DNA of 63,482 nucleotides, from positions 1 through 63,482 of the forward strand of contig JAMBLJ010000218.1 of assembly GCA_023336815.1 (NCBI GenBank), written 5' to 3'. Below, piece after piece: positions 5,867-17,323 of the stretch. Each line of letters starts with the position of its first letter. Position 1 is the first letter of the stretch. This stretch comes from Actinomycetes bacterium (GTDB lineage: Bacteria; Actinomycetota; Acidimicrobiia; Spongiisociales; UBA5794). The notes below the pieces were generated by a model that was given only the letters and a program-made list of their open reading frames with translations, ran no database searches and was not told where the DNA came from. The position numbers and the translations under genes were made by a program.

Positions 5867-6526
5867 CTACGTGTGGTCGTCTTCAGATGTGGCGACGAGA
5901 TCCAAGACGCGGTCGACGACGCCGCTGATATCGATATCGCTCGTGTCGATCACCGTCGCATCGTCGGCCGGTCGCAGCGGTGAAGCGGCCCGGGACGAAT
6001 CTGCATCGTCCCGAGCGGCGAGCGCTGACGCGATCTCGCCTATCGAGGTGCCTGTCGATTCGAAGTCCCCTGCTCGGCGGGCGGCTCGCACTTCGGGCCT
6101 TGCCGTCAGGAATATCTTCACGTCAGCAAGAGGGAAGACGACCGTACCGATGTCGCGACCCTCGACGACCGCGCTGCCTCCGTGGTTGTGCACCCATCGA
6201 CGCTGGAGGCCCACGATGTACGCTCGCACAGGTGCGTGAGCCGACACAGCGCTTACATGTGCTGTGACCTCAGATGATCGAACGTGAGCATTGATGGGCA
6301 CGGCGTCGAGGGTGATGCCATTGGATCCGTAGTCGATCGACCGTGCTGTAACTTCCCTAAGGATCGCATCACAATCCGTCACATCGATGCCGGCAGTGAG
6401 TACGGCAACGGTCGCAGCGCGGTATGTCGCACCGGTATCGAGATAGGCCAGACCAAGTTCTCGGGCAACCGCACGCGAAACGGTGCTCTTGCCGACTCCC
6501 CCCGGCCCATCGATGGCTATGACCAC
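5867..6526 (-). CDS. cmk: Cytidylate kinase
   Basis: IAIDGPGGVGKST, YLDTGATYRA, EGRDIGTVVFP, IDTS. Confidence 0.96.
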   Translation of the reverse strand: MVIAIDGPGGVGKSTVSRAVARELGLAYLDTGATYRAATVAVLTAGIDVTDCDAILREVTARSIDYGSNGITLDAVPINAHVRSSEVTAHVSAVSAHAPVRAYIVGLQRRWVHNHGGSAVVEGRDIGTVVFPLADVKIFLTARPEVRAARRAGDFESTGTSIGEIASALAARDDADSSRAASPLRPADDATVIDTSDIDISGVVDRVLDLVATSEDDHT

Positions 6527-7791
6527 AGACCCTCCATGGTTGTATAGAAGTCTGGCCAGGATACGGAAGCGATCTCGGCATCCCTGATAACGACAGGCGC
6601 CGTTGCTTTCGTTGCGGCAACCGCAGCTGCCATCGCGATCCTGTGATCGTGTTGCGTCTCGATGACCCCACCATCCAGGAACCCGGTTCCGACAACGTCG
6701 AAGCCGTCTCTCCTGGGTTCGATCCCTCCCTTGAGCGAACGGATCATGGCGACGACAGAATCGATCCGATCAGATTCCTTGCCCCGCAATTCGGCCGCGT
6801 CCCGTACCGATGTGATCCCATCGGCATAGGCTCCGATCACTGCAACGAGCGGAAGTTCATCGAGGGCGGACGCGACGAGATCACCATCGATGGTGATGCC
6901 GCGTAGTCGACCACCTGTGACCGTGACATCTCCCACGGGGTCGCCCCCTGTTGATCCCGTGACGATCGCTTCGATCGTCGTACCCATCGACTCGAGAATC
7001 TGTAGGAATCCAAGCCGACCAGGGTTGAGCGAGATCCTGCGGGTCGTGACGGTTGCGCTAGGTTCAATGGCAGCGACCGCCCACATGAAGGCCGCAGATG
7101 ATGGATCACCTGGGACCTCATACCGCGCAGGTGGAATCGGGCCAGGAACGATACGGAACTTCGTGTCCGTTTCCCAGACTCCACGACCGATAGCTGCCAG
7201 CCAACGTTCGGTGTGATCTCGAAATCCGCCAGGCGAATCGATGGTGGATGGTCCGGTGGCAGCAAGCGCTGCGAACTCAAAGGCTGTTCGAACCTGCGCG
7301 GACGCGATGGGGATCGTGAAATCTGCAGCGATCACATTGGTCGCTCCACCAACGTCAAGAGGCGGTGTGTCGCTACTGCTTGTTGTAATGACGCCGCCGA
7401 GCGATGTGAGGGGGTCAACGAGTCTTGCCATCGGTCGATGAGACAACGATGCGTCCCCCACGAGCGTTGCATGAATGTTCGATGTCGACAGGACCCCCGA
7501 GAGGAGGCGCATGGTCGTACCAGAGTTGCCACAGTCGATCGCGCTCGTGGGTTCGTCCCAGTCGCGTATCCCTGGGGAACGAACCCGATCATCGACGATC
7601 GAGACTCCAAGAGATCGGAGAGCTGTTGCGGTCCGCTGGATATCGGCGCCAGGACCAAGCCCGGTCACGAGGCTATCTCCCTTGGCCATGGCCGCAAACA
7701 TAAGCGCACGGTGCGAGAGGGATTTATCGCCGGGTACGGCGATGTCAGCGGAGAACACGCCCCCTGGACCCGAGAGGGTGAGATCTGTCAT
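6517..7791 (-). CDS. aroA: 3-phosphoshikimate 1-carboxyvinyltransferase (EPSPS)
   Basis: PGDKSLSHRA, CGNSGTTMRL, RPMARL, SAQV, RDHTER, PGDPSSAAF, LRGKESDRI, DHRIAMA. Confidence 0.95.
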   Translation of the reverse strand: MTDLTLSGPGGVFSADIAVPGDKSLSHRALMFAAMAKGDSLVTGLGPGADIQRTATALRSLGVSIVDDRVRSPGIRDWDEPTSAIDCGNSGTTMRLLSGVLSTSNIHATLVGDASLSHRPMARLVDPLTSLGGVITTSSSDTPPLDVGGATNVIAADFTIPIASAQVRTAFEFAALAATGPSTIDSPGGFRDHTERWLAAIGRGVWETDTKFRIVPGPIPPARYEVPGDPSSAAFMWAVAAIEPSATVTTRRISLNPGRLGFLQILESMGTTIEAIVTGSTGGDPVGDVTVTGGRLRGITIDGDLVASALDELPLVAVIGAYADGITSVRDAAELRGKESDRIDSVVAMIRSLKGGIEPRRDGFDVVGTGFLDGGVIETQHDHRIAMAAAVAATKATAPVVIRDAEIASVSWPDFYTTMEGLWS

Positions 7792-8513
7792 CTGTCAGTC
7801 TCCTTGGCTGCGAGACGGTAGAGCGAACGGATCTCGTCCATCGTCAGCTCTCGAAAGGAGCCGGGGTCGAGGGTACGGTCGACGACTTCGCCGATCGCCG
7901 TTCGCACGAGACGTTCGATGGGAAGGTCGAAACTCTCGAAGAGTCTTCGAATCTCGCGTTTTCTTCCCTCGGTGAGCACGAGCTCGATGATGGTTCGCCC
8001 ACGCGAAGTGTCGAGCACTCTGGCTGACTTCGCCGCGGCCATGCCATCGTCGAGCATCACACCTGAAACCATCTTGTGAAGGATCGAAGGTGCAACGGAG
8101 GCAGGAACCAGGACCTGATAGGTCTTCGGCACCCTATATCGCGGGTGAGTGACGCGCAGTGCAAGATCTCCGTCATTCGTCATGAGCATGAGACCCTCAG
8201 AATGGAGATCGAGACGCCCGACCGGGTTCGTGACTGGCTCGGCAGGTACGATCGTCCGGACGGTCGGTCGGCCCTGAGGGTCGTCCATTGTCGTGATGAC
8301 CCCGGGTGGTTTGTAGAGCAACCAGGTCACGAGCTCGGTATCGAGGGGCAATCGGATACCGTCGATCGCGAGGTCGGTGGTTGCGGGATCGAGGCGATCG
8401 CCGACGTGGACAGCTACTCCGTCGACCGTGACGCGACCTTGTGCGATGAGCACATCGGCCTTTCTCCTGGACGCGTAGCCCGTACGGGCTATGAGCTTGT
8501 TGATCCGCTCGAT
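7788..8513 (-). CDS. rluB: rRNA pseudouridine synthase, RluB/RsuA family (S4 + catalytic domain); probable non-canonical ATC start
   Basis: YKPPGVITT, PVGRLDLHSEGLMLMTNDG, LTEGRKREIRR. The S4 N-terminus ERINKLIARTGYASRRKAD lies upstream of the track's GTG (8453), with no in-frame ATG/GTG/TTG. Confidence 0.88.
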   Translation of the reverse strand: MERINKLIARTGYASRRKADVLIAQGRVTVDGVAVHVGDRLDPATTDLAIDGIRLPLDTELVTWLLYKPPGVITTMDDPQGRPTVRTIVPAEPVTNPVGRLDLHSEGLMLMTNDGDLALRVTHPRYRVPKTYQVLVPASVAPSILHKMVSGVMLDDGMAAAKSARVLDTSRGRTIIELVLTEGRKREIRRLFESFDLPIERLVRTAIGEVVDRTLDPGSFRELTMDEIRSLYRLAAKETDR

Positions 8514-9073
8514 GATGACTCCGGGCGCATGGGCATTTCGAGGGTCTCCATGATCTCGGCTGGAGGAACATGGTCTGCAAGTGGGGGGAGGTCGGCTACC
8601 GAAGCGATGCCCATCTTCTCGAGGAACAGGGGCGTAGTTCCGTACAACACGGCCTGTCCCGGACCCGGCGCTCTGCCGATCTCCTTGACGAGTTCTCTGC
8701 GCTCGAGGGTGCGCACCGCATGATCAGAGTCGACGCCGCGTATCTCAGCGATCTGTCCCCTTGATACGGGTTGGCGATAGGCGACCACCGAAAGGGCTTC
8801 GAGCGCTGCGTTGGACAGTCGCTTCACCCTGTCGGTCGAGGCGTACCGTTCGAGATACGGTAAGGCGTCTTCGTGTGTGTAGAGCCGCCATCCGCCAGCG
8901 ACCTCTTTGAGTACGATCCCGTGACCCCGCGAAAGTGAGTCTCTGAGGTCGTCGATGGCGGTATCGATGGCAGACGTGGGGAGTTCGAGAACCTGTGCGA
9001 GTTCAGCGGTGCTGACGGGTTCTTCGGCAACGAAGAGGATCGCCTCAAGGAGCTGTGCTGTGCTGTCCATCAT
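8489..9073 (-). CDS. scpB: Segregation and condensation protein B
   Basis: LEAILFV, VAGGWRLYT, ALEALSVVAYRQPVSRGQIAEIRGV, LYGTTPLFLE. Confidence 0.95.
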   Translation of the reverse strand: MMDSTAQLLEAILFVAEEPVSTAELAQVLELPTSAIDTAIDDLRDSLSRGHGIVLKEVAGGWRLYTHEDALPYLERYASTDRVKRLSNAALEALSVVAYRQPVSRGQIAEIRGVDSDHAVRTLERRELVKEIGRAPGPGQAVLYGTTPLFLEKMGIASVADLPPLADHVPPAEIMETLEMPMRPESSSSGSTSS

Positions 9074-9846
9074 CCTTGTCCATCCATTCCAACCATCGTA
9101 CGGAATCGTTCCTCGGCTGCGCCCTCATCGTATGCGATCGATATTGCGGAGTTCATCTCTCGTTGCTCAACCTTGACGATGCCCCACCTGGCAAGTTCGA
9201 GCAACGCGAGGAAGTAAGCAACGACCTCGACATCGCGGGTGCAGTGGGCGACAATATCATCGAAGTCTGACGTGACCGTCGCAGCCATCCGACCCTGAAG
9301 GTCGACCATGGCGTCCTGAACCGATGGAAGATCCAAGTCAAGATGGTCGACGTCGGGTTCGGCGTACTGTGTGCTGAACACCCGCTCGGCGATCGCTGCA
9401 AGGCCCTTCACATCCACAGGCACAACCACGTCCGGTACGGGTGCAACGACATGGTCCGGCAGGCCAACGCGTCGCGGCACGAAGCGTGTAGCAGCATCCA
9501 TCCGGTGTCTCAAGACGGCGGCCACATCTTTGAAGGTGAGACACGCCAGAAGCCTTGCGAGAAGTCGATCGCGTTCCTCCGACAGGAGAAGCTCGTCATC
9601 GAGATCGATGGGTTCATCCTCAGGGAGGAGATGGCGGGCTTTGATCTGGATAAGTGTTGCCGCGATGAGAAGAAACTCGCTGGTTCCCTCGATATCGAGT
9701 TCAGTCATGTCATCGATGAACTGGATGTACTCGTTGACTATCCCAACGAGGCTGAGTTCTGTGATCTCAACCTGGTGAGATGTGATGAGCTGGAGGAGGA
9801 GATCGAGAGGGCCCTCGAACACACGTGTCCGTACTTCAAACGTCAT
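9070..9846 (-). CDS. scpA: Segregation and condensation protein A (kleisin)
   Basis: FEGPLDLLLQLI, SEFLLIAATLIQIKARHLLP, FLALLEL. Confidence 0.95.
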   Translation of the reverse strand: MTFEVRTRVFEGPLDLLLQLITSHQVEITELSLVGIVNEYIQFIDDMTELDIEGTSEFLLIAATLIQIKARHLLPEDEPIDLDDELLLSEERDRLLARLLACLTFKDVAAVLRHRMDAATRFVPRRVGLPDHVVAPVPDVVVPVDVKGLAAIAERVFSTQYAEPDVDHLDLDLPSVQDAMVDLQGRMAATVTSDFDDIVAHCTRDVEVVAYFLALLELARWGIVKVEQREMNSAISIAYDEGAAEERFRTMVGMDGQG

Positions 9847-17129: not shown

Positions 17130-17302
17130 GATTCGTCTCCCTCGGTCACGCGAGGAGGTGTGCCGGTTGCCGCGAGATCGTCGCTGAGATTGTCGGCGAG
17201 CTGCTCTGCGATCTCGGGGGCAGATGCCGGATCTGCTGAGGCCAGGTCTTCTGCTAGCTCGTCGTTTGTTGGGACGTGAGGATCTGTGATGTGATCTGTC
17301 AT
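17126..17302 (-). CDS. 58-aa acidic small protein between HAD-IIA and tlyA; not in ORF track
   Basis: MTDHITDPHVPTNDELAEDLASADPASAPEIAEQLADNLSDDLAATGTPPRVTEGDES*. Fills the gap exactly, and its stop overlaps the tlyA CTG (CTGA). Confidence 0.75.
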   Translation of the reverse strand: MTDHITDPHVPTNDELAEDLASADPASAPEIAEQLADNLSDDLAATGTPPRVTEGDES

Positions 17303-17323
17303 GTGACCATTATCGCGGATTCC

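Follow-up and report, generated by a model that had tools for sequence, protein, structure and literature searches.

A probable AUC start codon for an RluB-like pseudouridine synthase in an uncultured marine-sediment Acidimicrobiia bacterium

The window analyzed in this work is a contig of 63,482 nucleotides (JAMBLJ010000218.1, assembly GCA_023336815.1) from an uncultured marine-sediment Acidimicrobiia bacterium, known from a fragmented metagenome-assembled genome (MAG) of 299 contigs. On its minus strand, the window encodes scpA (9070-9846), scpB (8489-9073; Pfam SMC_ScpB, 2.1e-51; TIGR00281), an RluB-like pseudouridine synthase (7788-8513) and an EPSP-synthase-like protein (6517-7791), together with a cmk-like gene. 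The RluB-like gene, hereafter rluB, is located downstream of scpA-scpB. It appears to start at an ATC codon (8513-8511), from which it extends over 241 codons and a stop codon.

The predicted product combines an N-terminal S4 RNA-binding domain (8385-8510; Pfam PF01479, profile positions 1-44) with a pseudouridine synthase catalytic domain (7935-8324; PF00849, PseudoU_synth_2), in which the catalytic GRLD motif (G100, R101, L102, D103) is invariant. An S4 domain followed by a catalytic domain with the conserved Asp of GRLD is the arrangement of the RsuA/RluB/RluE/RluF family, and it is shared with E. coli RluB, the 23S rRNA pseudouridine 2605 synthase. The RluB equivalog was also the top NCBIfam match; its score of 143.6 bits, however, falls below the cut-off of 290, so that only an assignment to the RsuA/RluB/RluE/RluF family is justified and the protein is named "RluB-like". 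The subfamily model TIGR00093 was passed, with 140.7 bits against a cut-off of 109.3.

In the start region, read along the minus strand, a GGAG (8522-8519) is followed by TC, by two consecutive ATC codons (8516-8514 and 8513-8511) and by GAG CGG ATC AAC AAG. The GGAG is Shine-Dalgarno-like, stands 5 nt before the second ATC and doubles as a Pro-Glu codon pair of scpB, while the first ATC would occupy the position of an ancestral ATG and is a possible alternative start. The nearest in-frame upstream stop is a TGA at 8726-8724, and no ATG, GTG or TTG occurs in this frame between it and a GTG at 8453-8451, within the S4 domain. Position 1 of the Pfam S4 profile aligns with the residue directly after the two ATC codons, and position 3 of the NCBIfam RluB equivalog profile aligns with residue 2 counted from ATC 8513. 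The scpB stop (TAG, 8491-8489) lies 25 nt inside the ATC-started gene, forming a co-directional overlap. An earlier, sequence-only reading of this DNA had described the same arrangement, namely a GGAG-TC-ATC-ATC-GAG-CGG start leading into the S4 N-terminus, a frame without ATG, GTG or TTG back to a TGA at about 8725, and an overlap with the last 25 nt of scpB; sequence, frame and domain boundary agree with it on each point. It had also suggested that sequencing data be checked for an ATG at 8511-8513. Contigs from four public runs belonging to four studies, two of them representing diverged strains, show no variant at 8511-8516 and keep ATC ATC, and the base call is real. Where a source is recorded, the public runs come from sediment metagenomes, of which one is marine.

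The further suggestion of that reading, that an ATC start of rluB should be conserved in relatives, is well supported by comparison. The gene was found in all 30 same-order relatives examined, and its start region was read in 29 (the unpublished genome G021, whose rluB has a canonical ATG, is among those counted, and none of the conclusions depends on this genome alone). The pattern NNC ATC GAR CGN, without a usable canonical start, was present in 17 of the 29 relatives, comprising all nine same-genus genomes and eight others. ATC ATC GAR CGN is read in the nine same-genus genomes and in G013, G014, G015 and G017; the first codon is replaced in the remaining four, with ACC ATC in G016 and G018, GCC ATC in G025 and TCC ATC in G026. 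Any ATG, GTG or TTG upstream in these 17 relatives lies 125 codons away, within scpB. In G009, an in-frame stop occurs 8 codons before the ATC pair, leaving only the ATC codons as start candidates. In loci reading ACC, GCC, TCC or GAC before the ATC, the codon corresponding to ATC 8513 is the sole near-cognate codon available. GGAG or GGAGG is found at the same spacing in nearly all ATC-type loci (GGAC in G007).

Together with this genome, the ATC-type loci amount to 18 among 30. Codon 2 (ATC 8513) is ATC in 18 of 18, whereas codons 3-21 each show synonymous variation; another conserved Ile codon is written ATA in 5 loci, ATC in 12 and ATT in 1. Pairwise codon differences over codons 3-21 amounted to 1283 synonymous versus 549 non-synonymous, and the N-terminus is conserved in frame. 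At the sequence level, the ATC is conserved beyond ordinary coding constraint, although the lineages behind these counts are not independent. A single-gene tree placed the genus together with G014 and G016 in an all-ATC clade with 100% support in the SH-like approximate likelihood ratio test (SH-aLRT). It required 1 to 5 changes from ATG to ATC, a number that is not fixed because the tree is poorly resolved at depth.

Beyond the order, we used, as an outgroup only, a broad cross-phylum panel of 80 loci, taken from among the matches listed, rather than close relatives. Among these matches, a canonical start was observed almost everywhere, often at exactly the codon of ATC 8513, which aligns with the ATG, GTG or TTG of Bacillus and many other phyla and is equivalent in position to the starts of homologues. 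NNC ATC GAR was found there only in two further Acidimicrobiia MAGs.

The relatives also suggest how the ATC start may have arisen. Eleven more distant ones start at ATG, GTG or TTG, one codon further upstream, which in 7 of these overlaps the scpB stop as NTGA where the first ATC stands here; ATC 8516 aligns with the ATG, GTG or TTG of G012, G011, G023, G022, G030 and G010. Where the start is canonical, scpB stops in this NTGA, whereas in ATC-type loci its stop is 13-25 nt further on. Ancestrally, a canonical NTG start would have shared a 4-nt NTGA with the scpB stop, and a single G>C substitution (ATGA to ATCA) would then have removed both the ATG and the TGA of scpB. The text of G012 is GGAGGG ATG ATC GAG, with the scpB TGA inside ATGA, and a G>C change there would yield ATC ATC. 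Once TGA had become TCA, scpB would run on for 4 to 9 more codons, which in this genome corresponds to a Ser-rich eight-codon tail, SSSGSTSS, and its stop (8489-8515, minus strand). One substitution would explain both the lost ATG and the lengthened ScpB. Initiation would then have fallen to the pre-existing ATC located 5 nt behind GGAG(G), which stayed fixed, while the first codon would have been free to drift to ACC, GCC, TCC or GAC.

Under this proposal, translation would begin at AUC 8513-8511, or possibly at the AUC one codon upstream, and the ordinary initiator tRNA would decode it as fMet. In this genome, that tRNA is of the usual kind, with a CAU anticodon and three G:C pairs. A dedicated initiator tRNA for AUC (GAU anticodon) was not found among the genome's tRNAs, where tRNA-Ile(GAU) is an ordinary elongator. 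Ribosomes may arrive by Shine-Dalgarno-guided initiation, by re-initiation after finishing scpB 22-25 nt downstream, or by both; coupling is documented for starts that precede the stop by 38-50 nt (PMC12548453). The weak codon would keep output low, at a level sufficient for a catalytic rRNA-modifying enzyme, and the known action of initiation factor 3 (IF3) would make this output sensitive to initiation fidelity. Folding of the region 8460-8570 (minus strand) gave z = -0.25, which is not significant, so that neither occlusion by structure nor a frameshift stimulator is indicated. A 6-bp hairpin (GCCCGU ACGGGC; 8476-8491, minus strand) begins at the scpB stop codon, within rluB codons 9-14; the whole region around it folds no better than shuffled sequences.

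Several observations weigh against an ATC start. In E. coli reporters, AUC reaches approximately 1-2% of the level of AUG (bioRxiv 10.1101/063800). The conserved GGAG is no proof of a Shine-Dalgarno role, because the same bases encode the conserved Pro-Glu pair of ScpB. Part of the ATC conservation is ordinary coding constraint, since ATC is the preferred Ile codon and is simply codon 2 in G012. The ATC and CTG starts of dnaA and rpsL in Deinococcus were proven by N-terminal proteomics (PMC2830850), whereas the evidence for rluB is comparative. Finally, in G028 no canonical or near-cognate codon precedes the S4 domain, so that another initiation route may exist in this family. At its start place (L013, C9), which reads TGA GGA CGA GAC GTA GAA CGG, the frame is closed by a stop 3 codons upstream, and the gene might begin at GTA. 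Considering these points together with the comparative evidence, we estimate a probability of roughly 80% that the RluB-like gene has an ATC start.

Other explanations of the locus fare far worse. Mechanical gene calling would pick GTG 8453, the first canonical codon, and yield a protein that lacks the first half of S4, in which case the in-frame conservation upstream would be incidental. We regard this as very improbable. The first canonical codon shifts from codon 22 to codon 66 among relatives, standing at codon 22 in five ATC-type loci and at 23-66 in the others, so that the GTG is not a conserved start. Moreover, purifying selection acts in this frame on the 20 codons preceding the GTG; they encode the N-terminus of the S4 domain, about 20 residues of which would be lost, and no Shine-Dalgarno-like sequence was noted before the GTG. 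An open rluB frame far upstream and the 25-nt overlap with scpB could instead point to a ScpB-RluB fusion produced by programmed -1 frameshifting. This is less probable still: an X XXY YYZ slippery heptamer is neither present nor conserved in the overlap, where relatives read GAGCCACCATCG, GAGGATCCATCG and similar sequences, and the non-significant folding result stands against it as well. Furthermore, scpB and rluB are separate in 80 of the 80 other-phyla loci among the matches listed, and the rluB-frame stop 8 codons upstream in G009 leaves very little room for a shift.

The fragmented state of the 299-contig MAG could also raise the suspicion that the ATC stems from faulty sequencing or assembly, or that the gene is a decaying pseudogene. 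The chance of either is negligible. Seventeen relatives and the two further Acidimicrobiia MAGs show the same arrangement, and the contigs of four independent studies carry no variant; rluB has an unbroken reading frame, retains the catalytic GRLD and shows a strong excess of synonymous changes. Relatives, contigs and intact frame already refute this explanation. Initiation at ATC is the preferred account of the start of rluB.

The probable ATC start of the RluB-like gene is a new case among the established conserved non-canonical starts, which include those of infC and pcnB in E. coli, and it has an unusually clear origin from an NTGA overlap. It resembles infC (AUU/AUC/AUA, with autoregulation by IF3) in having a near-cognate AUH codon after a Shine-Dalgarno sequence, putative in the case of rluB, in its conservation within a lineage and in its translation-related function, and by the known action of IF3 its AUC should be discriminated against. 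In contrast to infC, rluB does not encode the codon-sensing factor, so no autoregulatory loop is implied; its Shine-Dalgarno-like element is only GGAG(G), inside the upstream gene, and its start overlaps scpB by 25 nt. With dnaA and rpsL of Deinococcus, it shares the properties of a housekeeping gene whose N-terminus lies upstream of any ATG, GTG or TTG, with a lineage-conserved ATC or CTG that is mis-called by gene finders. Non-canonical starts of cvfC1 and ccpN were also detected in S. aureus by ribosome profiling (PMC13009471).

Among actinobacteria, Streptomyces provides an ATC start in infC and a GTC start in sigR that is repressed by IF3, as shown genetically (PMC5472188). Like rluB, sigR is actinobacterial and has its non-canonical start in a gene pair, being coupled to rsrA, and its weak, IF3-sensitive codon sets protein stoichiometry. 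However, sigR is the upstream member of its pair, with a GTC codon and regulation established by genetics, whereas rluB is the downstream member, with an ATC known from sequence. The co-directional stop/start overlap is also reminiscent of termination-reinitiation coupling (PMC6728339), including the phage fr coat/lysis pair with starts at -38 and -50 nt (PMC12548453). Relatives show the classic ATGA, GTGA and TTGA forms, and the derived form, with a start 25 nt upstream of the stop, is within the documented range. Unlike in these systems, the restart codon of rluB would be AUC rather than AUG, GUG or UUG, and rluB may depend on scpB translation.

A genome-wide survey placed this start among others. 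From 2838 crude gene calls, we sought coding signal upstream of the most-upstream canonical codon, which yielded 70 candidates away from contig edges for comparison with Pfam domain boundaries. The codon model has weak discrimination (approximately 0.18 nat per codon), and extensions as short as that of infC escape it. In 11 survey genes, a domain begins before any canonical start, and infC is a twelfth case. Of these approximately 12 supported cases, five are translation-related (infC, infA, rluB, tlyA and pth) and seven are not: mpg, priA, a DsbA-like gene (likely start ATC/ATT), a SnoaL-like gene and a GT4 gene (both likely ATT), an MFS gene and an LpxA-like gene (both likely CTG). The LpxA-like gene has no orthologues in the relatives.

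Two of the translation-related cases, infC and tlyA, lie in the window, and their ATC and CTG starts, which the sequence-only reading had also proposed, hold up in comparison. The infC start (54041-54039, minus strand) stands 7 nt after AGGAGG, and ATC, ATT or ATA behind a GGAGG-type Shine-Dalgarno sequence is present in 28 of the 28 infC loci found. For tlyA, the likely start is a CTG at 17129-17127 (minus strand); the aligned codon is CTG, followed by A, in 23 of 30 loci, and position 1 of the S4 profile falls at residue 4. The tlyA CTG is part of a CTGA overlap with an acidic open reading frame of 58 codons (17130-17303, minus strand), whose TGA supplies the overlap. This reading frame has no Pfam match, and its stop-start overlap with tlyA is kept order-wide as CTGA.

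The remaining translation-related genes lie elsewhere in the genome. The likely ATC start of infA (G000 contig C145:9299-9301, minus strand; L059, L101) is 6 nt after AGGAG, and in four genomes a TAG stop occurs 4 codons upstream. Numbered from this ATC, residues 4-73 match positions 1-69 of the TIGR00008 profile. The ATC is kept, 6 nt after GGAG, in three genera (the own genus, G014 and G016), while all other relatives have ATG, GTG or TTG at the aligned codon. To our knowledge, an AUC start has not been described for any bacterial infA. With infC and infA, the genome appears to use ATC starts beyond rluB. In pth (G000 contig C36:11349, plus strand; L051, L129), there is no canonical start, and the likely CTG shares a CTGA with the L25/Ctc stop codon; this overlap is conserved in six genera, and other relatives have ATG or GTG near LVVGLRNPG. 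Two genes outside translation show the same context. In priA (G000 contig C201:4085, minus strand; L041, L338), the likely CTG overlaps coaBC in a CTG-A arrangement that recurs in many relatives across the order, and in mpg a CTG (48662-48660, minus strand) overlaps the pheT stop as CTGA and is conserved mainly within the genus.

Further observations were made during the survey. Five candidate extensions proved false, three of them involving in-frame TGA codons resembling selenocysteine and two involving in-frame TAG codons. The TGA codons are located in a SelD-like AIR-synthase-family protein (G000 C149:6636, L034; SHGAG-TGA-ACKLGP), a formate-dehydrogenase-like molybdopterin enzyme (C57:4482, L037; NRT-TGA-HAPSVAGL) and an AhpC/TSA_2 protein (C84:7200, L048; RHFG-TGA-LTCRE). 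The TAG codons, in a BaxI_1 gene (G000 C85:12076, L040) and a DUF1801 gene (C130:851, L082), may represent nonsense alleles, pseudogenes or assembly errors. A further possible CTG start was noted for a 4Fe-4S ferredoxin-type subunit (LRYGFVIDQTTCIGCHAC; G000 C134:2109, minus strand); this CTG lies 5 codons upstream of the first canonical codon, and AGGAGGAG stands 5 nt before the CTG.

The sequence-only reading had gone further and proposed that rluB, tlyA and infC form an IF3-sensed set of rRNA-modification genes that is de-repressed when IF3 is limiting, a set that could be extended to infA and pth. According to this idea, a group of translation genes (those for IF3 and IF1 with AUC, TlyA and Pth with CUG in CUGA overlaps, and the RluB-like protein with AUC) would rise together when start proofreading weakens. 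The trigger would be a shortage of IF3 or IF1, or immature 30S subunits escaping IF3. Repression of non-canonical starts by IF3 is known from E. coli and Streptomyces (PMC5472188, PMC2268962), IF3 overexpression lowers re-initiation as well (PMC2268962), and 30S subunits with assembly defects evade proofreading by IF3 (PMC6868393), which would provide a feedback logic for such a set. IF3 dependence of the starts described here would follow from this E. coli and Streptomyces biochemistry. In favor of the proposal, five of the approximately 12 weak-start genes are translation-related. In addition, four of these five cases are conserved across several genera or the whole order. Conservation extends to every locus found for infC, to the whole order for tlyA, to several families for rluB, to six genera for pth and to three for infA. 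The genome-wide scan for functional enrichment, which the same reading had suggested, found 4 of 11 supported survey cases to be translation-related, against 0 of 29 Pfam-matched candidates with a normal start; the Fisher p of approximately 0.004 is indicative only, given small numbers and a detection biased towards conserved genes with N-terminal domains.

Against a common regulon, 9 of the 11 rRNA-modification or maturation genes checked have a canonical start (ksgA, rsmH, rsmG, rsmE, rbfA, rimM, ybeY, truB and an RluD-like gene), and seven of the supported cases have no connection with translation. In the tree, the unusual starts date from different depths and did not appear together. The CTG cases share their CTGA-overlap context, not a function: tlyA and pth lie in such overlaps like priA and mpg, so that coupling rather than function may explain them. 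Of 118 CTGA junctions counted, most were TGATG overlaps with a normal ATG. No bulk excess of near-cognate starts was detected either, since a Shine-Dalgarno 5-mer stood 4-10 nt before ATC, ATT, ATA or CTG codons upstream of first canonical starts in 2.1-3.5% of cases versus 3.1% overall, by a method of low power. A shared, IF3-sensed control of these genes is therefore unlikely in our view, and neither its membership nor a joint rise under weakened proofreading should be taken as more than a doubtful proposal. If true, it would constitute a fidelity-sensing homeostatic circuit wider than infC autoregulation, in which the AUC start of infA would be a bacterial counterpart of eukaryotic eIF1 autoregulation.

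The probable ATC start has consequences at three levels. Standard gene callers will start rluB at GTG 8453 and lose half of the S4 domain; infA, tlyA, pth, priA and mpg are likely truncated in the same way in this lineage, so that RNA-binding or other N-terminal residues are lost from databases. With respect to regulation, if the weak starts of IF1, IF3, TlyA, Pth and RluB were co-regulated by initiation fidelity, the infC paradigm would, hypothetically, extend to a small regulon. In evolutionary terms, the locus suggests that one substitution can erase both signals of a 4-nt start/stop overlap, and that a gene may long remain functional on a near-cognate codon.

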